Shown here: positions 1,445-43,898 of the stretch, piece after piece | Numbering within the stretch: position 1 is the first letter of the stretch | Layout of the letters: each line of letters opens with the position of its first letter | IMG/VR virus record: IMGVR_UViG_3300045988_113766 | Span: 1 to 45,284 of that record | DNA length: 45,284 bases | Origin: a virus | Reading direction: 5' to 3' (one strand) | Translations under genes and position numbers: made by a program | Notes under the pieces: model-generated | The model's input: only the letters and a program-made list of their open reading frames with translations | Told to the model about the DNA's origin: nothing | Database searches by the model: none

Positions 1445-1744
1445 TCATTCGTCCTTGTTTGTCTGTTTAATAATCTGATTTACGTATGTAGAAAGTCCCG
1501 CAATGAGAATTCCCTGCGTGATTGCTGTGAAAATCGCCATCGCAATGTCCTGTCCGGTACCGCAGGTACAGGTGGCAAACACATAGATCGCGCAGATTGC
1601 AATGCTGATTCCGCCAAGGATAAGCGGGATATACTTATCTTTTACTGCCTGTGCCTGTTTGAGTGCCATGCCTACAAAATATAAGGCAATTGCTACTACG
1701 ATGAGTTCCGGTTTTACATAGTTAATGATCTGTTCCATAGTCAT
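1445..1744 (-). CDS. Holin (small multi-TM membrane protein)
   Basis: 99 aa with hydrophobic segments (ELIVVAIALYFVGMAL, IPLILGGISIAICAIYVF, MAIFTAITQGILIAGL). It sits immediately upstream of the endolysin. Confidence 0.7.
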   Translation of the reverse strand: MTMEQIINYVKPELIVVAIALYFVGMALKQAQAVKDKYIPLILGGISIAICAIYVFATCTCGTGQDIAMAIFTAITQGILIAGLSTYVNQIIKQTNKDE

Positions 1745-2396: not shown

Positions 2397-2604
2397 TTTC
2401 TTCATTTTCAATAAAATTCTGTACATCTTCATCCTCCTCTGTTTCTTCTGGAATATAAACATCTGTCATTGCTGCCAGATACTGAATTGTTACGTTCTGG
2501 TTTTCAATGGTTTTTTTCTGCTTTTCTACGGTTGCTCTGAGGTTTTCGTCCTCTGCCGCTTCTGCAGGTGTCTGAGTCATTTTTCTTACTTCCATGTTCT
2601 TCAC
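2389..2604 (-). CDS. Hypothetical acidic protein (start uncertain; overlaps the RT 3' end)
   Basis: 71-aa ORF in the same direction as the operon. It overlaps the RT C-terminal tail by about 100 nt. Confidence 0.35.
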   Translation of the reverse strand: MKNMEVRKMTQTPAEAAEDENLRATVEKQKKTIENQNVTIQYLAAMTDVYIPEETEEDEDVQNFIENEENV

Positions 2605-3625
2605 CCTTTCTTAACTGTTTTAAATATTTCTGAGTCCTTTGTTTTACTTTATACGAATTTCCTTTATCAGCATTATTTTCCCAGGAATTGTGATGTTCAT
2701 CTACTTTTTCCGGTTCAAGTTCTCCTCTCTGTGATTTATGAACCATCCTCACAAGAGTTTTTCTTTCATGCTTTACACTATCTGAGTTAAGCGTCATGAT
2801 TATCCTTCCTGTTTCTGTCAGCCGATAGTCGAATCCCAAAAATGTAAATCCTTTTTCAAGCGGTGTTATGTGTGATTTCTTTTCATTTGCTTCCAGCCCG
2901 TATATCTGCAATTGCTTCATTATCTCACCGAAAACTCTCTCAGCCTGTTTTCTTGTTTTAACAAGAATCCAGAAATCATCCATGTATCTGATATTGTATT
3001 TTACATGCAACTGTTCTTTGATGTAATGATCTAATGGATTCAGAAGTGAAATACCGGCAATCTGTACCATTTGAGACCCTGGATTGTATCCGGTTTCTCC
3101 TGCGTACTGGTCTCGTAAAACTCCACACGACATTTCTGTTGTATCCTTATCCGTCAGATTCCTTATTTGCCTTTCTACATCACTGTGCCGCATGTTTAGG
3201 TAGTATCCATGTATGTCAACCTGAACTATCCATCCTTTTGTGCCGTATCTGCAGTAATAATTCCATAGATATTTTTTAACCAGTGCTCTTGCAAAGTCTG
3301 TTCCCTTTCCTGTCTGGCAGGCGCAATTTGAATAAGTGAATCCCTTTGTCATTTGAGGATAAAGAGAATTATCATTAATGCTCCTTTGATATACCCGATC
3401 CTTAAACGGAATACTGAGAGCTTCCCGGCGTTTCGGATATGTTATCAAGACTGTTTTAGGCTTCCCATTCTTCCATGTTCCGTCTTGATGCTGATGTTTC
3501 ATCCGGAGTATATTTTCTTCTCCATTTAACAAAAACGACTTAACTGATGGTTTCCATGTTACTCCATTCTTACATTTCAGCATTGATTCGTATAAACTAT
3601 CATAGCTTGTTATATGATCTTTCAT
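2504..3625 (-). CDS. DGR reverse transcriptase
   Basis: 373 aa. Contains the YMDDFW (YxDD) motif and ...PGSQMVQIAGISLLNPLDHYI..., resembling the DGR-RT GxxxSQ...NPLD signature. Located directly downstream of TR. Confidence 0.9.
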   Translation of the reverse strand: MKDHITSYDSLYESMLKCKNGVTWKPSVKSFLLNGEENILRMKHQHQDGTWKNGKPKTVLITYPKRREALSIPFKDRVYQRSINDNSLYPQMTKGFTYSNCACQTGKGTDFARALVKKYLWNYYCRYGTKGWIVQVDIHGYYLNMRHSDVERQIRNLTDKDTTEMSCGVLRDQYAGETGYNPGSQMVQIAGISLLNPLDHYIKEQLHVKYNIRYMDDFWILVKTRKQAERVFGEIMKQLQIYGLEANEKKSHITPLEKGFTFLGFDYRLTETGRIIMTLNSDSVKHERKTLVRMVHKSQRGELEPEKVDEHHNSWENNADKGNSYKVKQRTQKYLKQLRKGEEHGSKKNDSDTCRSGRGRKPQSNRRKAEKNH

Positions 3626-3790
3626 CTTTTGTGCTTCCGCAGTTTCTCAGTGCTGGCAGGCTTATGTAAGTCACGCACTGTCTCTTTCGATTATCCGCGG
3701 TATTGTTTAGGCTTATGCCAGGGATTTCGGCTCCTTGTCTATATCTTCAAGGCGATCATTGCTATGCAATAACCATAATGCTTTTAGGAA

Positions 3791-3917
3791 GACAATCGGG
3801 GCATACACATTCGAGTTCCATGCGTTCGTGTTGTTGACGTTGCCGGATGTGTTCACATTCATGACGTTGTTAGCGTTGCCGCGGTTAGCCGAACGAGAAA
3901 ACACATTCTGAGGTGTT
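3791..3917 (-). repeat. DGR template repeat (TR); the 3626..3790 spacer probably belongs to the same TR RNA
   Basis: Aligns without gaps to 4432..4558 (offset 641). It is Asn-codon (AAY) rich in the sense strand: NANNVMNVNTSGNVNNTNAWNSNVYAP. Confidence 0.92.
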
Positions 3918-3936
3918 AGCCTACGTCCCATGTAAT

Positions 3937-4368
3937 TTAAGAGTATCTTTCTATGTCAGATTCCCGCCATTTTTTAATATAATTTCTCACTTTTACTGTT
4001 TGTTCTGACCAATATTCTACCCTTTTTCCTTTCAGGTGAAAGAGTGGATGCGCAAGCCCAATCAGTGCAAGTAAGTTGTTACAATCCAGAATCGCCTGAC
4101 GCTGCAGTTTGCTTCTCCAGGCCCATAGCTCTTTCTTATTCTTTTCTGTTACCCGGATATTGTTTGCGGTCCAGGCATTTATATAAATGTCTTTCGCTGT
4201 CCGGATGATATCGTCCGTGAGCGCAGATTGATATTCCGGAAGAAATACCTTTTTATTCTTGCAGATCTGAATCGTGTAGACCGCCAGCTCTCTTGCGTAC
4301 CATACTGCATTTAACTGTCTATTCTGCGGTGTGTCCGGTACATTTCTCTCACCTGCTTTAACTGCCAT
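3937..4368 (-). CDS. avd: Accessory variability determinant (Avd-like four-helix-bundle protein)
   Basis: About 143 aa from the ATG at 4368 (RBS GGAAAGGAAAAG). Helical and basic, positioned between VR and TR as in known DGRs. The ORF-track start at 4392 lies inside the hairpin. Confidence 0.75.
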   Translation of the reverse strand: MAVKAGERNVPDTPQNRQLNAVWYARELAVYTIQICKNKKVFLPEYQSALTDDIIRTAKDIYINAWTANNIRVTEKNKKELWAWRSKLQRQAILDCNNLLALIGLAHPLFHLKGKRVEYWSEQTVKVRNYIKKWRESDIERYS

Positions 4369-4382
4369 TTCTTTTCCTTTCC

Positions 4383-4408
4383 ATCCCTGCATCCGTGGGT
4401 GCAGGGAT
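4383..4408 (-). promoter_or_regulatory. Hairpin immediately 3' of VR (candidate DGR target-recognition hairpin/cruciform)
   Basis: ATCCCTGCA / TGCAGGGAT, a 9-bp stem with an 8-nt loop, 14 nt downstream of the target stop codon. No U-tract follows. Confidence 0.55.
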
Positions 4409-4422
4409 TATTTGATTGCTGA

Positions 4423-5619
4423 TTATACGACGACAAGCGGGGCATACACAACCGAGTTCCATGCGGTCGTGCTGCCGACGATGCCGGATGTGCTCACACC
4501 CATGACGCTGTAAGCGTTGCCGCGGTTAGCCGAACGAGAAAACACAAACTGAGGCGATGTGTGGTTCGCAGCTGAATATCTAATCATAATCGGATAGGTT
4601 TTCCATGGTTCAATCGGTGTTTTGGAATTTGTTCTCCGCTGCCAGTATTCGTGAACTGTTCCCTCCTCTTTGCTCATGTTGACATTCATCTGAGACGCGG
4701 ATGCAAGGAACACTCTGTCGTATGTGATATCTGTCACGCCACCATCATTGACGGTATTCGCAAGGGTAGTTACTTTGACCGTCTTTAATGCTGCCAGCAT
4801 ATCCGCAGGCATTCCGCAGAGGAAACCGTCTTTTGTGGCTAACTGACTCGGCGCAATATCCCAGTCGTCCTGTTTTGTCCACCATTTGCCCTTTGGTTGT
4901 GTTGAATTGAGCCACTGACGGGCCGCTGAGTATTTCCAGCGATTCCAGCCGTATGCTGATTCCTGCATACTGTTAAGATTTCCGTTTCTGGTTGCGTACT
5001 GCATGGTTCCCAGATCTGTTCCGTCTGATCCGGATGTAACTGCCACGGTTTCAATTGTGGTGATTCCGTCTGCAGCGTAAGAGGTTGCTTTCCAGTTGCT
5101 CGGCGCAATGTCCGGCATCTGTGTGAATCCATATACTGATCCGCCTGCAGGTACGGCCTTGGTCAAAGTAAACTGCCAGTATGTGTCTGCTTTTGCATTA
5201 TTTCCCCAATCCTTTTCTAATTTGAGGTGATAAGTTCCTGCTGCCAGTCCATCCGGACAGCGCAAGAATGCACGGTTGCTAAACTGTAATCCGAATGGGG
5301 TTGTGTAATGCGCTTCCAGGAATGTTCCTGAAATGACTTCTCCGTCCTCCAGTTCTACATTTTCAAAATGTGTAACCTGCCACGGGAAATCATATTCCTG
5401 GCCGGCGGCAGTATCTGTCCATTTCTCAAGAATCTGGTCTCCGAAATCAAAAATTTTCTGAGCGTACCCATTTCTGGAAAGCCCGCTGATCTGGTCCCAC
5501 GTTGATATGTTTTCCAGGTTTGCCGCCTGTGTAAATGCCATTGTCTGCAATGCCTGTGAAATTTCTTTCATAGTGCTTTCGCGTGGAAAATTAATGAGTG
5601 TCTGGTCTCCTGTTGCCAT
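4423..5619 (-). CDS. DGR target protein: putative receptor-binding tail fibre protein with a C-terminal variable (C-type-lectin-like) region
   Basis: 398 aa. The C-terminus FSRSANRGNAYSVMGVSTSGIVGSTTAWNSVVYAPLVVV is the VR. It is the last structural gene of the fibre block. Confidence 0.85.
   Translation of the reverse strand: MATGDQTLINFPRESTMKEISQALQTMAFTQAANLENISTWDQISGLSRNGYAQKIFDFGDQILEKWTDTAAGQEYDFPWQVTHFENVELEDGEVISGTFLEAHYTTPFGLQFSNRAFLRCPDGLAAGTYHLKLEKDWGNNAKADTYWQFTLTKAVPAGGSVYGFTQMPDIAPSNWKATSYAADGITTIETVAVTSGSDGTDLGTMQYATRNGNLNSMQESAYGWNRWKYSAARQWLNSTQPKGKWWTKQDDWDIAPSQLATKDGFLCGMPADMLAALKTVKVTTLANTVNDGGVTDITYDRVFLASASQMNVNMSKEEGTVHEYWQRRTNSKTPIEPWKTYPIMIRYSAANHTSPQFVFSRSANRGNAYSVMGVSTSGIVGSTTAWNSVVYAPLVVV
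4432..4558 (-). repeat. DGR variable repeat (VR) at the 3' end of the target gene
   Basis: 17 mismatches to TR over 127 bp. Every one is at a plus-strand T of TR (A in the sense strand). About 37 TR adenines are available. Confidence 0.92.
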
Positions 5620-7535: not shown

Positions 7536-9785
7536 TTAAGTCAAATTGCCTGAGCCTTTATTGTACAAATACTTATCCCTGACTTTGTCGTATAAACATA
7601 ATACTCCGTTATCTTTTTTCACTGGAATAAGATCTGCCACCAATACATCCTCCTGATAAATTTTCGCATAATAGATTTTGCCTTTTAGCCCAACTCCCGC
7701 ATTAGTTCCGTTTTTTGACATATTTCCAACATAAAGTGGACTTGTAAGAGAAAATGAATCAATAGAGTCTGTATCTACAGAAGAACTTCCGAAATTAAAT
7801 GTTGTGCCATTTTGTTTAATTGTCCAATTACCACCCCAAAATGCAGAGGGTTTAGCTGCACTGTCTATTGTTCCTCTAATCGCATAAAAATTATCAGTGC
7901 AAGTATATCCATATTTATATTTATCATCTCTTGCACCGCATATATAAGTTGTTCCAGTGTTTACATACAAACTTACTTCCGTATTAGTATTTTGATCAGG
8001 TAAAATTTCTGTATCGAAATAACAATTTCCATCCAAACTTAAACTTGTAATTTCTATATGATTTTCTGTAATGGATTTTTTATTAATAGTAACAGAACAT
8101 TGCGCTGTGTAATTGCCGTCAAGTGTTGTGACAGTAACAACCGAATGCCCAATTTCTTTTCCAATTATTTTTCCGTTTTCCACAATAACATTTGAATTAT
8201 TTACGCTCCATGTAACATTTTGATTTGTTGCGTAACTTGGGAGTACGGTGGCTACTAATTGTACGGATTCTCCGACTTCCAAGGTAATAGCGTTATGATT
8301 TAATGTAACTCCTGTAACTTTTACAATATCTGGTATATCAGATGCTAATCCATAAGCAATTCCAAGGTTTTGAAGAGTTTTGTCAATTACAGGGCAATAA
8401 TGGGTTCTATAGAATTGTTCATTTGGATGTACTCCATCACCTTTTTTACTATTTGGGTTATATGTATATTTATTTTTGTTTAATTTAGTCATTGCTATTT
8501 GTGCATATTTACGCATATCAAGATACGGCATATTCCATTTTTCACAGATTTCAATCGCTTTTGAATAGATGCTGTCCACGTAAGAATTGTCTTTTGCAAA
8601 ACTGTGTGGAATAATATACAGTTTGACAGTCAATGGGTACGTATCCATGATATACTGCAATGCACTCTCTAATGCTCCGCAGAACGTCCCCGTATTATAC
8701 GAAGCATCATATCCAGATTCGATTGATCCGACTGGAATACTACTATTGATGTCATTAACTCCACCGTCAAAAATGATCGCATCAGCTGCACCAGTGTAAC
8801 TCCTAATCTGCGTTACGATCGGTGTGTGTTCTGGGTTGGATGTAGTGGCAAAGTTCGCACCAGATTCGGCTTTATTAATCCAAGTGGCATCTGGATATTT
8901 TTCTTTTAACGGCTGCACGACGCCGGTGCCTTCTTTCCATCCCCATCCAGCTATGATACTATCTCCAAATGCAACGATTGTCTTTCCTTTGTATGGACTT
9001 TCTGTGACCTCAACATTCGAAGACTCGTTATTTTGCAGTTCTTTCCATGAGCCAAAAGCTGCTCCATTTTTAGTTCGAATGAATGTCCTGCTATCTTCAA
9101 GGCACGTATAGATGTGTACAACACATTTATTGGAAAAACCAACAGAACACGCCATGCCACCAGCGTCAACCGGTACATTTTTCACGCCATGACAGGATAT
9201 CAAATACGCCCTGTTGTCTTCCATATTGTCTAAGTCAGCCAAAACTTCCGTAGAATAAACATGCAAGCCAGTCATGAATGTTTTACTCGTATCCACAGTG
9301 CCAGAACTAGTTCCTGAACCATTTGCGCCTTTTGGAATCCCAAGATTCAGTACAGGATTCTCGGTCGTCCCTGTGATCGATGCAGTGGCAGACTGTCCAG
9401 ATTCTAGTGTATTCACCGTTCCAATTGTGATATTTGGTGTTTTCCCTGTTGACCCTTTCGAACCGTTTCTAACTTGGAATGTGCTTTTTTCGCCGTTCGT
9501 TTTTGTCACGGTGACAATATTTGTACCACCATCTTCTGTCGATGTTGTAGTCTGCTTAACTTCTAGGATGCCAACCCCATCTTTTCCATTACTGCCAGTT
9601 CCAGAACCACCGCTTGAACCAGCACCGCCGGTGCAATTTCTTTTCAAGTAATCTACATCTTCCATTAATTCAGGAATTTTTTCTGCGTTAATGAGCATTC
9701 TCGCAAATTCCTCTTCCGTTCCTGTGTATCCTTTTTCTTTTACGATTGCATACGCGCTTACAGCACCTAAGTCTTCCCACATCAT
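7536..9785 (-). CDS. Tail fibre/spike with an SGNH(GDSL)-type esterase domain and a Big_2 domain
   Basis: 749 aa. G/S-rich collagen-like linker. SGNH blocks FGDSIIAGWG, GGVNDI and DGVHPN. Big_2-like VTGVTLNHNAITLEVGESVQLVATVLP...VTWSV. Confidence 0.75.
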   Translation of the reverse strand: MMWEDLGAVSAYAIVKEKGYTGTEEEFARMLINAEKIPELMEDVDYLKRNCTGGAGSSGGSGTGSNGKDGVGILEVKQTTTSTEDGGTNIVTVTKTNGEKSTFQVRNGSKGSTGKTPNITIGTVNTLESGQSATASITGTTENPVLNLGIPKGANGSGTSSGTVDTSKTFMTGLHVYSTEVLADLDNMEDNRAYLISCHGVKNVPVDAGGMACSVGFSNKCVVHIYTCLEDSRTFIRTKNGAAFGSWKELQNNESSNVEVTESPYKGKTIVAFGDSIIAGWGWKEGTGVVQPLKEKYPDATWINKAESGANFATTSNPEHTPIVTQIRSYTGAADAIIFDGGVNDINSSIPVGSIESGYDASYNTGTFCGALESALQYIMDTYPLTVKLYIIPHSFAKDNSYVDSIYSKAIEICEKWNMPYLDMRKYAQIAMTKLNKNKYTYNPNSKKGDGVHPNEQFYRTHYCPVIDKTLQNLGIAYGLASDIPDIVKVTGVTLNHNAITLEVGESVQLVATVLPSYATNQNVTWSVNNSNVIVENGKIIGKEIGHSVVTVTTLDGNYTAQCSVTINKKSITENHIEITSLSLDGNCYFDTEILPDQNTNTEVSLYVNTGTTYICGARDDKYKYGYTCTDNFYAIRGTIDSAAKPSAFWGGNWTIKQNGTTFNFGSSSVDTDSIDSFSLTSPLYVGNMSKNGTNAGVGLKGKIYYAKIYQEDVLVADLIPVKKDNGVLCLYDKVRDKYLYNKGSGNLT

Positions 9786-10029: not shown

Positions 10030-11352
10030 CTATTTAGCTTCTTTCTTCAACAAATCCCATTCTTTTTCTGTAATTATTTCCAAAGCCCATTTGGAAGGAA
10101 CATGTATTTTCATTCTCTTTGAAATACCATTCTTTCTGTAATACCTGTTCCAGAAGTACGCATTTGCTAAAGCACGCGCTTTATGCATGATGCAGATATA
10201 CGTTGCTCTAGCATCCGGTGTGCCAAAAACCTGATAGTTATATGCGGTGCACCAGGAACACCCCTCTGCAATCGGGCAGTAGAAGCATTCGTCCGTACTC
10301 TGCGTTCTCCGATTAATCTTTTTAAGGCACTCCACGCGGCATTTATGGCAGTCGCATTGACAGATTCCCGCATCTACATCTCCTATACTGTACGGTTCCT
10401 GTTGGCTTCCCAAAGAGCTTTCCATATATCGCAAGCATGGATAAATGATGCCGTCCGGATCAACCGCCAACATTACGCCGTTTCCACCGCACCAGTTTTG
10501 TAAATCGTCTTCTTTCTTTGGGTGAAACAACTCCTCGTTGAACAGTGAACAATAGAATTCTCTTTCAAAATCCATATTATGTTCTAAGAAATAATCCGCA
10601 AGCAATTTCATTTGGCCGTAAAGAGTTGTAGCGTGTATTGGTTTCCACCCATCCTCATAAACACAATTCGCATTTATCTCTGTGTATCCCAGGTTAATCA
10701 TGTGAACAATCGCATCATATATATGCATCACATTCGCCGGTGCAATAGTGATCTTTGAGCCCATGTAATTCCCCTGATTCATCCAGTCTTTTGCTGCAGA
10801 TACCGCCAAATCATAAGAGGGCTGTCCGTCTGGAAAAACGCGGCAAGAATCATGGAGTTCTTTGTTTCCGTCTACCGTTACTGAAAATGACAGTCTGTTC
10901 TTCCACTTTTGCAGTACCATCTGCACTTCCGGTTCGTGATACAAGACCCCATTACTGCAGATTGAAAACATAGTCTTCATAAGCCACGGATGGTTTAATT
11001 CAATCATTTTGTCGATTGTGTAGGTGCAAATTTTATCAATCAGTTTTGCCTCCAGAAGTGGTTCGCCGCCAATAAATTCTATTATTAGCCCAGGCGATTT
11101 CTTGGGATTTATATATTCTTTAACCCCTTTTTCTCCTGACAGTAAAAGATCTATCATCTTTTTTGCGGTTTCAAATTTCATACTGCGTTTTCCTTTGTGG
11201 GTTTGGTAGCAGTATGTACAAGCAAGATTGCAATCATCTGTCACCTGAAATGTCACCGACTGTGTAAGAACTCTTTCTTCTCCCTCTTTCCGCCGGTGTA
11301 ACTCAGGATACAACCTGCTTAATTTATCGCTGTACTGTTCTGCTCTCTTCAT
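10030..11352 (-). CDS. Radical SAM enzyme with a SPASM-type C-terminal auxiliary Fe-S domain (peptide/protein maturase-like)
   Basis: 440 aa. CNLACTYC (CX3CX2C) at residues 41-48, preceded by FQVTDD. C-terminal Cys clusters WCGGNG...DGIIYPC, CQCDCHKCRVEC and CFYCPIAEGCSWC. RBS GAAGGGA. Confidence 0.85.
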   Translation of the reverse strand: MKRAEQYSDKLSRLYPELHRRKEGEERVLTQSVTFQVTDDCNLACTYCYQTHKGKRSMKFETAKKMIDLLLSGEKGVKEYINPKKSPGLIIEFIGGEPLLEAKLIDKICTYTIDKMIELNHPWLMKTMFSICSNGVLYHEPEVQMVLQKWKNRLSFSVTVDGNKELHDSCRVFPDGQPSYDLAVSAAKDWMNQGNYMGSKITIAPANVMHIYDAIVHMINLGYTEINANCVYEDGWKPIHATTLYGQMKLLADYFLEHNMDFEREFYCSLFNEELFHPKKEDDLQNWCGGNGVMLAVDPDGIIYPCLRYMESSLGSQQEPYSIGDVDAGICQCDCHKCRVECLKKINRRTQSTDECFYCPIAEGCSWCTAYNYQVFGTPDARATYICIMHKARALANAYFWNRYYRKNGISKRMKIHVPSKWALEIITEKEWDLLKKEAK

Positions 11353-12038: not shown

Positions 12039-12680
12039 TTAATACACTGGTGACGATGCTGTTCCATAGCAAGTTCCGGAACAGGTTTTTCCACAATTAT
12101 TTGAGCAATCGTTCGAGCAGCTAGTACTGCATCCGCCGCATTGGCTCTGGCACAAATTAGAACAGCTGTCTTTGCAGGTTGCTTCACATGAATTGTTGCA
12201 TCCTGTCCCGCATGATGTTCCGCATGAGCTGCACCCTGAACATCCAGAGCAAGACTGTGTGCAAGATGCAGTGCAGTTGTCGTCGCATCCAGAGCAATAT
12301 CCGGAGCAGTTTCCAGAGCATCCGGAGCAATTATCGCTACATGAACTTCCACAATGCCCGCTGCAATCTCCAGAACAGTTTGTCGAACACGATGTCCCAC
12401 AGGCAAATCCGCAGCCATTATTGCAAGTATCACCGCAGGAAACAGAACAGCCGGCTGTGCAGTCCATCGCGCATTTTGCCTCGCAATAAATCGTGCAGTC
12501 AGTTTCGCATGCCGCGGAGCAAGTATCCCGGCACACATTTGTGCATGTTCCCGAACATACCGTGCTGCAGTTATGTGAGCAACTAGTTCCGCATCCGCCG
12601 CAATTCCCCGACGCCGTTGTCTGGCAACTGGTTGAACAGCTGGTTCCGCAAGTCGTACAAGCCCTTTCTCTCCCTCCTTT
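12039..12680 (-). CDS. Cys-repeat reading frame continuing directly after an in-frame TAG (213 codons, about 51 Cys, CxxxC periodicity). There is no canonical start before GTG at 12536.
   Basis: My translation after the TAG: KGGRERACTTCGTSCSTSCQTTASGNCGGCGTSCSHNCSTVCSGTCTNVCRDTC...CSGTCYGTASSPVY*. Same frame as 12681..13208. AAAGGAGGGAGAG lies right after the TAG. Confidence 0.55.
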   Translation of the reverse strand, partial: KGGRERACTTCGTSCSTSCQTTASGNCGGCGTSCSHNCSTVCSGTCTNVCRDTCSAACETDCTIYCEAKCAMDCTAGCSVSCGDTCNNGCGFACGTSCSTNCSGDCSGHCGSSCSDNCSGCSGNCSGYCSGCDDNCTASCTQSCSGCSGCSSCGTSCGTGCNNSCEATCKDSCSNLCQSQCGGCSTSCSNDCSNNCGKTCSGTCYGTASSPVY

Positions 12681-13208
12681 CTATGCTTTTGTTGATGTTG
12701 TGCATCCAGATCCGCATGTATGTGAACATTTGCCTGCACATCCTCCTGTGCATCCTCCGCAACCTCCAGAGCACCCATCTGCGCAGGATTTATTGCAATT
12801 GTTGCTACAATTTCCTGTGCAGGAGCTGCAACCCATGCAGGCAGAAATGCAGGACTGTTCGCACAATCCTGTACAGTTTCCCCGGCATCCAGAATTTTCA
12901 GCTGTTTTTGGAACTGCCATCATTTTGTCTGCAAATTTTTCCGCTCTTTCCAGTTCCATTTCCAGAGATGTTCTCTTTTTTCTGAGACTGTTATCCGGAA
13001 GATAATCATTGATCTCCAGTAATGGATCTATAATCTTTCGAATGTGTTCATCCGAAATCTGGCTTACTACTTTTGGTTCCATCATATAGTCATACTCCTG
13101 AGAAGCATATTGCGTGAGCTGACCTCCCATATCTGGCACATCTCTACTAGCCATGACTCTTTTTACTTTTTCTTTGATGCGTATCAACGAATCTGCCGTT
13201 ATGATCAT
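12681..13208 (-). CDS. Protein with a roughly 105-aa non-repetitive N-terminal domain followed by a Cys-every-4th-residue repeat (candidate rSAM substrate)
   Basis: 175 aa. RBS AAGGAGGAAAG. C-terminal part GCRGNCTGLCEQSCISACMGCSSCTGNCSNNCNKSCADGCSGGCGGCTGGCAGKCSHTCGSGC. It ends at TAG (12681..12683). Confidence 0.7.
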   Translation of the reverse strand: MIITADSLIRIKEKVKRVMASRDVPDMGGQLTQYASQEYDYMMEPKVVSQISDEHIRKIIDPLLEINDYLPDNSLRKKRTSLEMELERAEKFADKMMAVPKTAENSGCRGNCTGLCEQSCISACMGCSSCTGNCSNNCNKSCADGCSGGCGGCTGGCAGKCSHTCGSGCTTSTKA

Positions 13209-30391: not shown

Positions 30392-30462
30392 TAGCGGGAG
30401 ACGGATTCGAACCGCCATTCCAGGCTAAGGAGGCCTGTAAGTTTCCGTTACTTTATCCCGCG
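30392..30462 (-). tRNA. tRNA-Arg-like (anticodon CCT), atypical
   Basis: Hand-folded cloverleaf. T arm GGCGG-TTCGAAT-CCGTC. Anticodon arm CAGGC-CTCCTTA-GCCTG. A 4-bp D stem with GG in the loop. Oddities: a C1-U72 mismatch and U at position 37. Confidence 0.6.
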
Positions 30463-30469
30463 GTAATTA

Positions 30470-30543
30470 TGGACATTCTGAGATTCGAACTCAGGACCGT
30501 CCGGTTATGAGCCGGATGCTCTGACCAGCTGAGCTAAATGTCC
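30470..30543 (-). tRNA. tRNA-Met or tRNA-Ile2 (anticodon CAT)
   Basis: Clean cloverleaf. Acceptor GGACATT/AATGTCC. D arm TAGCTCAGCTGGTCAGAGCA. Anticodon loop CTCATAA. T arm CTGAG-TTCGAAT-CTCAG. Confidence 0.85.
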
Positions 30544-42101: not shown

Positions 42102-42323
42102 AAGTTATCTGCATAGTAATACTTGTGATTCTCAATATACTGTAAGCAAATAACTTTATATAAAAACCGCCCCTGCTGGTAACAAGGACGGCTTTTCAAG
42201 AATCTTTGCAGTTGTGAATGCTCAATTCTTTCCTGGACAGTTAGAATTATAGCATATTTATTTACACCTGCAAAGGTGCATTTTTTATACCCTTTTTTAC
42301 ATAAAATATCACGGAGGTGTGCT

Positions 42324-43898
42324 ATGAGTCTTGAAAATGTATGTATCTATTTAAGAAAGTCCCGCGCTGATCGGGAGGCTGAAGCAAGAGGTGAAGGTGA
42401 AACCCTGGCTAGACACGAACGAATCCTTCTCGATCTGGCCAGAAGCCGTAATTATAATGTCGGTGCTATTTACAGGGAAATTGTTTCCGGAGAAACTATC
42501 TCTGCCCGACCGGTTATGCAGCAGCTTCTTCGAGAAGTCGAAGCTGGTTCGTGGGATGGCGTCCTGGTTGTAGAGGTAGAACGTCTGGCCAGAGGCGACA
42601 CAATTGATCAGGGTGTTGTATCCAGAGCTTTCCAGTTTTCTGATACAAAGATTATTACTCCAACAAAAACTTATGATCCTGATAACGAATTTGACGAAGA
42701 ATACTTTGAATTCGGTCTTTTCATGTCCAGGCGTGAATACAAAACTATCAAGCGGCGTTTAAATGCCGGAAGGATTTCTTCTGTCAAAGAAGGAAAGTAT
42801 TGCGGGTCCAAACCGCCTTACGGATACGAGCGTGTTAAACTGCATGGCGAAAAAGGTTTCACTCTCCAGCCGGTCCCGGAGCAGGCCGAAGTTATTAAAA
42901 TGATCTACTCCTTGTACTCCGGAGCATCCGGTGACCGAATCGGTGTTTCAAAGATTGTCCGAAAACTCAACGATATGGGGATCAAATCTCCTTCCGGAAA
43001 AGACTGGGTTCCGATCAGTGTCCAGGATGTTCTTGCAAATCCTGTGTACGCCGGAATGATCCGCTGGAATGGTCGAAAAACTGTCAGGGCTATTCAGGAT
43101 GGTATGGTCACGCAGTCGCGTCCACGATCTAAAGAGGATGATATACTCTTATTTCCCGGCCGGCATCCGGCAATCGTATCCAAAGAAATGTATGATTCCG
43201 TACAGCAGATCCGGAAGAAGAACCCTCCGCGTCCGATCAGTATTAAGAACACGATAAAAAATCCTCTTGCCGGAATTGTGTACTGCAGCAAATGTGGTCG
43301 CGCCATGGTTCGGCGGCCTTATCAGAAACGCGGTCAGGATGACACACTTATGTGTTCTTACACCTCCTGCCCTACTGTAAGTAGCAAATTGTCGCTTGTG
43401 GAAAGAGCTGTGTTAAATGGCATTCAGGATCTCGTTGACGAATACCGCCTGAATGCTGCTGTTCCCGGTCCGGATATTAACAACGCCGTTAAATCTAAAG
43501 AGAAATTAATTGCAGAGAAAGAGCATGAACTAGAGAAATTGAATGTACAGAAGATGAAGCAGTATGATCTGCTCGAACAGGGAATCTATACGACTGAGGT
43601 TTTTCTTGAACGATCTAACTCAATCGCATCCTCCATTAATTCCTGTCAGGATTCTATAGAATGTCTAAAAGAAGAAATCAGACATGACAAAGAGCTTATT
43701 GATCAGCAGTCCTCTTTCATTCCAAGATGTGAAAACCTGCTTGAAATCTACTGGAGTTTAGACACTGCCACAAAGAACAAGATGTTGAAAGAGTTGATCG
43801 AGAGGGTTAATTATACGAAGGATACCAAAAATGCTTTCCGCAAGGGGAATGAAGCCACCTTTGTTTTGGATATTTTCCCCAGAATTCAGTCAAATTAA
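42324..43898 (+). CDS. Large serine recombinase (integrase)
   Basis: Likely start ATG at 42324, behind GGAGGTG. N-terminal resolvase domain VCIYLRKSRADRE (catalytic Ser). Recombinase domain. Zinc ribbon CSKCGRAM...C.Y..C. C-terminal coiled coil. Confidence 0.88.
   Translation: MSLENVCIYLRKSRADREAEARGEGETLARHERILLDLARSRNYNVGAIYREIVSGETISARPVMQQLLREVEAGSWDGVLVVEVERLARGDTIDQGVVSRAFQFSDTKIITPTKTYDPDNEFDEEYFEFGLFMSRREYKTIKRRLNAGRISSVKEGKYCGSKPPYGYERVKLHGEKGFTLQPVPEQAEVIKMIYSLYSGASGDRIGVSKIVRKLNDMGIKSPSGKDWVPISVQDVLANPVYAGMIRWNGRKTVRAIQDGMVTQSRPRSKEDDILLFPGRHPAIVSKEMYDSVQQIRKKNPPRPISIKNTIKNPLAGIVYCSKCGRAMVRRPYQKRGQDDTLMCSYTSCPTVSSKLSLVERAVLNGIQDLVDEYRLNAAVPGPDINNAVKSKEKLIAEKEHELEKLNVQKMKQYDLLEQGIYTTEVFLERSNSIASSINSCQDSIECLKEEIRHDKELIDQQSSFIPRCENLLEIYWSLDTATKNKMLKELIERVNYTKDTKNAFRKGNEATFVLDIFPRIQSN
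42932..42946. repeat. Imperfect copy TGACCGAATCGGTGT (13/15)
   Basis: Inside the integrase gene. Confidence 0.6.

Follow-up and report, generated by a model that had tools for sequence, protein, structure and literature searches.

Among prokaryotes, diversity-generating retroelements (DGRs) are, to our knowledge, the one natural system known to hypermutate proteins in a targeted way, and their main reservoir lies in gut phages. The prototype is the DGR of phage BPP-1, in which the target gene mtd is followed by avd, then by a template repeat (TR), and then by the reverse transcriptase (RT) gene brt. The DUF6273 domain has also been published as a DGR target domain, with the variable repeat (VR) at its C-terminus (PMC10743442, PMC11792537, bioRxiv 10.1101/2024.10.15.618418). 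Here, we analyzed IMG/VR record IMGVR_UViG_3300045988_113766, a whole contig of 45,284 bp (hereafter the window) from a temperate contractile-tailed phage, in which a first-pass annotation had placed a complete DGR at 2504-5619. We are highly confident that this region is a complete, recently active DGR of the BPP-1 architecture (type B1, avd-TR-RT), carried by a temperate contractile-tailed Blautia phage and varying a likely receptor-binding tip. The assignment to the DGR class was borne out by the adenine specificity of the repeats, a DGR-type RT, an Avd-family gene, the BPP-1 gene order, an end resembling the initiation of mutagenic homing (IMH) sequence, and a hairpin.

Adenine-exclusive differences between the template and variable repeats

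The core of the region consists of the following features.

4423..5619, minus strand: target gene, an open reading frame (ORF) of 398 aa with a DUF6273 domain
4432..4558, minus strand: VR, codons 355-396 of the 398-aa target ORF
3937..4392, minus strand (likely start ATG 4368, 143 aa): avd-like gene, phrog_3206
3791..3917, minus strand: TR, non-coding, 127 nt, between avd and RT
2504..3625, minus strand: DGR reverse transcriptase, an intact ORF of 373 aa with YMDD at residues 214-217 and NPLDH

A direct-repeat search returned 3779-3913 and 4420-4554 at a spacing of 641. Base-by-base alignment of TR with VR reproduced the gap-free offset of 641 that had been proposed and gave 17 mismatches, every one of them (17/17) at a TR position with T on the plus strand and hence A in the minus-strand sense (on the plus strand, 9 T>C, 6 T>A and 2 T>G). 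Since the DGR genes all lie on the minus strand, these plus-strand T mismatches correspond to adenines of the transcribed TR. Careful realignment found no mismatch at a non-adenine within 3791..3917, as originally claimed, and the hand count of about 37 sense-strand adenines in TR proved to be exactly 37 of 127 nt. By the hypergeometric distribution, 17 mismatches would all land on these 37 adenines with P = 3e-11. Both this anatomy and the adenine specificity were observed directly.

The TR was then read in the frame of the target gene. Its translation is TPQNVFSRSANRGNANNVMNVNTSGNVNNTNAWNSNVYAPIV, and it reads ...NVFSRSANRGNANNVMNVNTSGNVNNTNAWNSNVYAP...; 13 AAY codons were counted, in agreement with the earlier description of an AAY-rich template. 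As many as 15 of the 17 TR/VR changes fell on codon position 1 or 2, and the number of stop codons that can be created by substitution of TR adenines is zero. Conversion of the 13 AAY codons to NNY makes 15 residues encodable, giving ~6e18 protein variants at most. With its 13 AAY codons and its freedom from stops, the TR is of clean design. The VR encodes residues 355-396 of the target, consistent with the roughly 40 last residues of the 398-aa protein named at first.

For comparison, ~55 related contigs were retrieved by a TR-derived pattern and an RT search. The family with a window-like TR comprised 33 contigs with 23 distinct VRs, and its TR was nearly invariant. As judged from these relatives, two of the 17 mismatches, at +3796 and +3916, are not of mutagenesis origin. 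At +3796/+4437, the sense strand has A in TR and C in VR; this C was observed in 23/23 distinct VRs of the window-like family and also in the distant cassettes examined (e.g. L013, L015 and L044-L053), where RT identity falls to ~50%. The constancy of the A/C difference at +3796 across VRs indicates a fixed difference of the IMH/IMH* type and not a mutagenesis product. At +3916, the VR base is present in the TR of most relatives, indicating that TR has changed in the lineage of the window, or that this position lies outside the transferred segment. Past +3796, the homology of TR and VR continued for ~12 nt with non-adenine mismatches; weaker homology, interrupted by mismatches of this type, could be followed to +3779/+4420.

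A scan of both strands of the window with TR, ignoring adenine positions, revealed no further VR-like copy and no second target. Two small ORFs across TR, of 72 aa (3713..3931, minus strand) and 58 aa (3735..3911, plus strand), were set aside as artefacts, because TR is a copy of coding sequence.

The DUF6273 target protein and its probable role

The first-pass annotation had called the target a distal tail-fibre gene. Its location agreed with that name; the target closes the tail module, ahead of the DGR genes and the holin gene, and the gene before it encodes a 335-aa protein rich in Ala, Glu, Gln and Thr, with an N-terminus that matches a tail-fibre PHROG. The target's own family match did not carry the name, since in Pfam it was to DUF6273 alone (E = 1e-10, residues 216-382). 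It also matched phrog_19280 (E = 3e-25), and a sequence search of PDB was negative. The protein comprises N-terminal helices, a beta-sandwich at ~60-206 and the C-terminal DUF6273 domain at ~216-398. The target family counted 1640 representatives at 50% identity, in which the ~360-residue target unit often forms the C-terminal end of longer proteins of up to ~1300 aa.

The AlphaFold model of the target reached a predicted local distance difference test (pLDDT) score of 94.6 and a predicted TM-score (pTM) of 0.90, and the isolated C-terminal domain reached a pLDDT of 91.8. In the model, the variable residues were found on the last beta-strands and loops, so that the rewritten residues are predicted to lie on the C-terminal beta-hairpin surface of the DUF6273 domain. 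Foldseek searches with both the full model and the isolated domain retrieved a sole significant solved structure, the N-terminal DUF6273 domain of an IgA peptidase from T. ramosa (9qa6); the further matches were other phage DUF6273 proteins. For DGR targets of the Mtd/TvpA type, the expectation is a C-type-lectin/FGE-like fold with VR on its ligand-binding face. As all matches were to DUF6273 proteins, the searches did not reproduce the link of this domain to the lectin fold.

Cassettes of this kind were also found on tails of another type. In L013/L014 (ENA ERZ28579402/ERZ28579055) and L015 (Logan ERR12389449), the target-avd-TR-RT block, with a target 77-83% identical, accompanies siphovirus-type tail modules, where the cassette lies downstream of tape-measure, Sipho_tail and Prophage_tail (Dit/Tal) genes and two unannotated ORFs. 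The proteins encoded upstream of the target in the window and in L013 have only their last 22 residues in common (68% identity; QxxHITxxIxxEDGGLxIVYTE). A shared 22-residue end in otherwise unrelated proteins suggests a conserved docking joint for the DGR target.

From gene position, we consider the target most likely to be the distal receptor-binding subunit of a tail fibre. As a likely receptor-binding tip, whose receptor binding is proposed by analogy with BPP-1, it would place host or ligand recognition under the control of the DGR. An alternative keeps the DGR and assigns the DUF6273 protein elsewhere, namely to a decoration or adhesin for gut or 'superhost' ligands (mucus glycans), or to a function for the lysogen. 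One PHROG matched by the target, with DUF6273-type domains, is labelled 'Hoc-like head decoration', the published DUF6273 targets of DGRs include Hoc-like 'tentaclins' that are proposed to bind superhost or microbial carbohydrates, and the sole solved DUF6273 structure belongs to a secreted IgA peptidase of a gut bacterium. However, the present target is free of the Ig-like repeats of tentaclins, and it stands last in the tail module, directly after the protein with the tail-fibre PHROG N-terminus. In the siphovirus-type relatives, it comes after the Dit/Tal genes with two ORFs between, the module is the C-terminal end of much longer proteins in many homologues, and the docking joint is common to the upstream proteins of the window and L013. 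We therefore judge a decoration or adhesin to be unlikely, while granting it real weight, and retain the receptor-binding subunit.

Natural variation and recent activity

The first-pass annotation had also described the element as apparently active, and public sequences agreed with this, in that hypervariability was confined to positions of TR adenines. Clusters at 90% identity contained 1900 distinct sequences for the target, 525 for RT and 373 for Avd. Natural sampling is thus unusually deep, with 1900 distinct targets in one cluster, for one 398-aa protein from a prophage of an abundant gut commensal, Blautia. Among 15 sequences of the target cluster, the differences were nearly confined to the 13 AAY-coded sites, the variable residues being 358, 365, 368, 370, 371, 374, 376, 380, 382, 383, 385, 388 and 390. 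The pairwise difference per site was 0.82 at these 13 sites versus 0.017 elsewhere, a 48-fold increment. In 51 related proteins, all observations at the 13 sites (663/663) were NNY-encodable, with Tyr, Asn, Ser and Gly dominating.

The same was observed at the nucleotide level. Across the 23 distinct VRs of the window-like TR family, mean entropy reached 1.08 bits where TR has adenine, against 0.09 bits at the remaining positions, and the diversified span of VR in relatives extended from ~+4451 to +4558. Divergent-TR cassettes, whose RTs are 50-85% identical, showed the same adenine pattern. Nearly each independent contig carried its own VR while the rest of the target was ~98% identical, indicating that the turnover of VR is much faster than point mutation.

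Non-adenine alleles of TR further revealed the direction of the transfer. The alleles G28A, C37T and 70-73 CAGT recurred in the VR of the same contig, as one-way copying from TR to VR predicts; the flow of information and the natural hypervariability were thereby seen directly. The exception was given by two independent assemblies, L005/L021 (IMGVR_UViG_3300045988_115216) and L011 (OLNS01000353.1), in which the non-adenine markers of VR (G28A, C37T and 70-72 CAG) are those of another TR allele than the one carried by the contig itself. Recombination since the last homing event, writing in trans from the TR of a co-resident relative, or chimeric assembly could each account for it. According to work cited in PMC5758913, the avd-TR-RT unit of BPP-1 acts in trans.

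Judged from these public sequences, the DGR is recently active in its lineage. An intact-looking but silent relic, in which the VR differences date from past activity of the lineage and no homing now occurs in this genome, would be compatible with the lineage-specific change of the window TR at +3916. However, the ORFs are all intact, the relatives have a matching TR, spacer, IMH-like end and hairpin, and nearly every independent contig has its own VR, so that we regard a relic as very unlikely and continue with a recently active element.

Reverse transcriptase and Avd-like protein

The RT, with its YMDD and NPLDH motifs, had been recognized previously, and its ORF of 373 aa proved to be intact. 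Profile searches matched it to RVT_1 (E = 9e-13) and phrog_1423 (E = 2e-67). Its best solved-structure match was BPP-1 bRT (8ub7, E = 6e-9, residues 3-298), ahead of the RT of a group II intron maturase (E = 4e-6) and of retron RTs, and BLASTP aligned it with bRT over nearly the full length at 22% identity (E = 3e-14). Among phages, its nearest relatives were RTs from phages that infect gut Firmicutes (Faecalibacterium and Roseburia phages, nd4/nd12), at identities of <=45%. Scores on group II intron and DRT/defence profiles were sub-threshold and far under the curated cut-offs; BPP-1 bRT likewise gave sub-threshold matches to the defence-RT profiles of PADLOC. An ordinary duplication or gene-conversion tract beside an unrelated RT (group II intron, retron or defence-associated), for which these sub-threshold matches to group II intron and DRT profiles might speak, is effectively refuted by adenine-exclusive mismatches (P = 3e-11) whose pattern recurs in every relative, by an Rfam search that found no group II intron or retron RNA, by defence and intron scores far below curated cut-offs, and by bRT as the best structural relative.

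The order target-avd-TR-RT had been described as that of BPP-1, and it is indeed the order of the annotated BPP-1 record; the Avd part of the claim could be established only partly. The avd-like product matched phrog_3206, 'Avd protein of DGR', with E = 3e-10, to which BPP-1 Avd itself matched with 9e-29. Avd accessory proteins of BPP-1-type DGRs are small, basic four-helix-bundle pentamers whose gene immediately precedes TR. Its likely start, the ATG at 4368, is preceded by an AAGGAAA ribosome-binding site, and many members of its cluster are 143 aa long. Its isoelectric point (pI) is 9.7; Avd proteins have been reported to have a pI of 9.5 +/- 0.7 and to be very poorly conserved (PMC5758913).

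Several observations weigh against a DGR of the standard type, or against parts of this reading. The canonical DGR RT motif (I/L)GxxxSQ is replaced by a variant, GYNPGSQMVQ, with an ambiguous alignment. Residues ~178-190 are GYNPGSQMVQIAG where BPP-1 bRT has GIPIGSLTSQLFAN, and both BLAST and HMMER alignments placed Pro at the position of bRT I181, a residue that contacts the template and incoming bases. This variant motif is conserved in the RT family and is kept down to RTs of 45-50% identity. The Avd-like protein gave nothing in Pfam at E up to 10, nothing relevant in PDB (as a single sequence or as a 9-member profile), and a negative hhalign comparison with BPP-1 Avd. Since similarity was found neither in Pfam and PDB nor by hhalign, we rate the Avd assignment as partly established from one PHROG profile together with position, size and charge. 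For the target, Foldseek matched neither the model nor the isolated domain to Mtd, TvpA, FGE or other C-type-lectin folds, hhalign against Mtd was negative, and the role as a receptor-binding subunit is contextual. Furthermore, nine cognate TR/VR pairs on other contigs (7 distinct VRs) showed 134 mismatches at A and 13 elsewhere, so that ~9% of the mismatches in relatives are at non-adenines. Finally, the evidence of recent activity concerns the lineage rather than this genome itself.

Candidate cis elements, spacer RNA and a proposed mechanism

The following features were delineated around VR and downstream of TR.

4420..4450, minus strand: IMH-like 3' end of VR, sense GTGTATGCCCCGCTTGTCGTCG..., including the fixed C at +4437
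4383..4408, minus strand: inverted repeat/hairpin, sense ATCCCTGCACCCACGGATGCAGGGAT, 11 bp
3626..3800, minus strand: structured spacer RNA ('Sp' region), from a 12-sequence alignment with covariation
3790..3795 with 3735..3740, minus strand: TR-end duplex of the spacer, TTGTCT:AGACAA, 6 bp, ending in A
3753..3775, minus strand: 10-bp stem-loop of the spacer, with a 3-bp extension (3781..3783 with 3749..3751) and a 3-nt loop
3637..3700, minus strand: larger 3' domain of the spacer, from the consensus structure

The end of VR contains a GC-rich sequence, GCCCCG(C/A)TTGTC, whose C/A difference is constant across the family and beyond which the mismatches are at non-adenines as well. By analogy with BPP-1 (PMC3240598), this segment may function as an IMH. 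The hairpin starts 14 nt past the stop codon of the target gene, ahead of the ribosome-binding site of avd, and its DNA fold was calculated at -9.8 kcal/mol (z = -2.0). Its sequence is identical in the cassettes with a 77-83% identical target, and its distance from the stop codon varies. In BPP-1, a hairpin/cruciform at the matching position is needed for efficient homing (PMC3240598), and the hairpin at 4383..4408 is a candidate counterpart for target recognition. A role as an intrinsic terminator of the target gene was rejected, because the coding strand has no U-tract after the hairpin; a promoter and terminator scan found sites no more numerous than in shuffled sequence.

The 165-nt spacer from TR to the start of RT was conserved above the flanking genes. 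Its consensus structure, from 12 sequences, contained 43 pairs with 99.4% of cells paired, and 12 pairs showed compensatory changes; none of 500 shuffles reached the observed values, and slid controls gave <=2 compensatory pairs. The conserved RNA structure was thus a direct observation. The TR:spacer duplex was invariant in 12/12 close sequences, while in L060, a 45%-identity relative, both sides had changed (TTGTGT/ACACAA), and L057 retained the duplex in another sequence. In an Rfam search of the window, two tRNAs alone exceeded the threshold, and no family was assigned to the spacer. The sequence GTAGGCT (3918..3925) is conserved just upstream of TR, and its pairing with spacer AGCCTA (3708..3713), on the minus strand, could by analogy be a counterpart of the 'cPRT stop' duplex of BPP-1. 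L057 and L060 preserve the pairing, and in L015 and L047 it is weaker; with such mixed support in relatives, we dropped this duplex as a feature.

By analogy with BPP-1, from which the priming site and the roles of Avd, IMH and hairpin are inferred, the element may work as follows. The avd-TR-spacer-RT region would be transcribed from the minus strand, and the TR RNA with its structured 3' spacer would assemble with RT and the basic Avd. The cDNA would be primed from the spacer itself, with the A at +3735, at the end of the 6-bp duplex with +3790..3795, as the likely priming nucleotide. If priming occurs as in BPP-1, cDNA synthesis would start at ~+3796, a start that would fit the observation that +3796 and all positions 3' of it are never transferred to VR. 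The RT would copy TR faithfully, except that any base may be placed opposite adenines. With the GC-rich IMH-like end and the downstream hairpin as guides, the cDNA would then take the place of the homologous VR at the target gene's 3' end, and 13 AAY codons for the tip of what is probably a receptor-binding protein would be rewritten.

Phage, host and neighbouring genes

The window encodes terminase, portal, major head protein, tail sheath, tape measure, baseplate wedge and integrase, the last at 42276..43898 on the plus strand (540 aa, phrog_95). Two phage tRNA genes, Arg(CCT) and Met(CAT), lie in 30392..30543 on the minus strand, and a holin gene (1445..1744, phrog_1129) is found downstream of RT after four small ORFs. 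The names on cluster members, Blautia wexlerae and B. obeum, point to the host, with B. wexlerae being the one indicated by the 90%-identity cluster of the RT. A scan with the TR pattern of contigs representing one genome per species gave no match; the host assignment rests on these names. Among 50,697 phage records, Megablast found no match to the 10 kb surrounding the cassette, indicating that the phage is not a deposited cultured one, and the papers searched did not describe this lineage. An RT of 98-99% identity is encoded on 18 IMG/VR contigs, and the three proteins of the window's cassette are present in NCBI nr (DAE69938.1, DAE69897.1 and DAE69937.1) as 'hypothetical protein' of MAG Caudoviricetes. 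The phage lineage is common in public gut data, where its annotation does not go beyond hypothetical proteins. A portable 'binding tip plus diversifier' module, moving between unrelated Blautia phage tails and writable in trans, is a speculation to which we assign a low chance.

A second unusual locus, which had been read as another fibre-associated system, contains the following features.

10030..11352, minus strand: radical SAM/SPASM enzyme, TIGR04115, 581 bits vs a cut-off of 350
~12060..12887, minus strand: C-x3 repeat frame just upstream of the radical SAM gene, with >60 consecutive C-x3 repeats, CGTSCSHNCSTVCSGTC...

TIGR04115 is defined as 'peptide maturase, CXXX-repeat target family', and both the radical SAM gene and the repeat frame lie within the tail/baseplate module. 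The cluster looks like a maturase in the style of ribosomally synthesized and post-translationally modified peptides, with a very long Cys-repeat substrate, in the structural region of a phage. The TR scan of the window found no TR-like sequence in this cluster, and in the 10-20 kb loci fetched for siphovirus-type relatives with the same DGR, none of the called genes was a radical SAM gene. The proposal that the phage has two independent host-range devices found no support; the radical SAM enzyme is a CXXX-repeat peptide maturase, and nothing in the analysis ties it to host range. A 749-aa protein is encoded at 7536..9785 on the minus strand, with a GDSL/SGNH esterase, a Big_2 Ig-like domain and tail-fibre PHROG matches; this protein, distinct from the DGR target, probably serves as a fibre or spike that modifies the receptor by deacetylation.

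Comparison with known systems

Near-identical or related cassettes occur in public assemblies, namely IMG/VR uncultivated viral genomes (UViGs), ENA and Logan contigs, and genomes of Blautia wexlerae and B. obeum, some of them on a siphovirus-type tail module. Their proteins are annotated as hypothetical, RNA-directed DNA polymerase, DUF6273 domain protein or 23S rRNA-intervening sequence protein, and never as a DGR. The element suits study of DGR RNA conservation in Gram-positive phages, as its covariation-supported spacer RNA is comparable with the BPP-1 model obtained by cryo-electron microscopy (cryo-EM), and study of the ligands of DUF6273 tips.

Among the closest known DGRs are those of gut Firmicutes phages (Faecalibacterium phages Lelie, Roos, Pioen and CP11; target 2 of nd4/nd12; Toutatisvirus). 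They share with the window a DUF6273 target, reported as C-type-lectin-like, with a C-terminal VR, and they supply its closest phage RTs; the setting is likewise that of temperate phages of Clostridia in the human gut. In contrast, RT identity does not exceed 45%, the host genus here is Blautia, and the window has a single adjacent target in place of an additional tentaclin or Ig-domain target.

Compared with BPP-1, the window differs in several respects. Its RT is only 22% identical to bRT, with GYNPGSQMVQ as the finger/palm motif where bRT has IGSLTSQ, and its Avd cannot be aligned by hhalign. The target is a DUF6273 protein for which neither sequence comparison nor Foldseek detected similarity to Mtd, the stem-loop carries a 3-nt loop instead of a tetraloop, and the phage has a contractile tail and a Gram-positive gut anaerobe as its host. 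Nevertheless, the gene order and strand logic are those of the annotated BPP-1 record, and the element similarly occupies the end of the tail gene run, with the lysis genes a short distance downstream. In both, the final ~130 nt of the target gene constitute VR, TR is ~130 nt long, and the mismatches are at adenines only; the RTs align over nearly their full length, and the Avd-like protein falls in the PHROG of BPP-1 Avd. The two also share a GC-rich, IMH-like end, where TR and VR show a fixed difference, and a hairpin that lies close downstream of VR (PMC3240598). As in the BPP-1 DGR RNA resolved by cryo-EM, a stem-loop, which binds Avd in BPP-1, lies just 3' of TR, and the duplex between the TR end and the spacer, ending in A, is comparable to the template:primer duplex with its priming nucleotide Sp A56; the larger 3' domain likewise has its counterpart among the element types of that RNA (bioRxiv 10.1101/2023.10.23.563531). 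As the first-pass annotation had stated, the class is not novel; with a textbook BPP-1 architecture, the element is a clean example of a known DGR system acting on a known target class, with no new principle.

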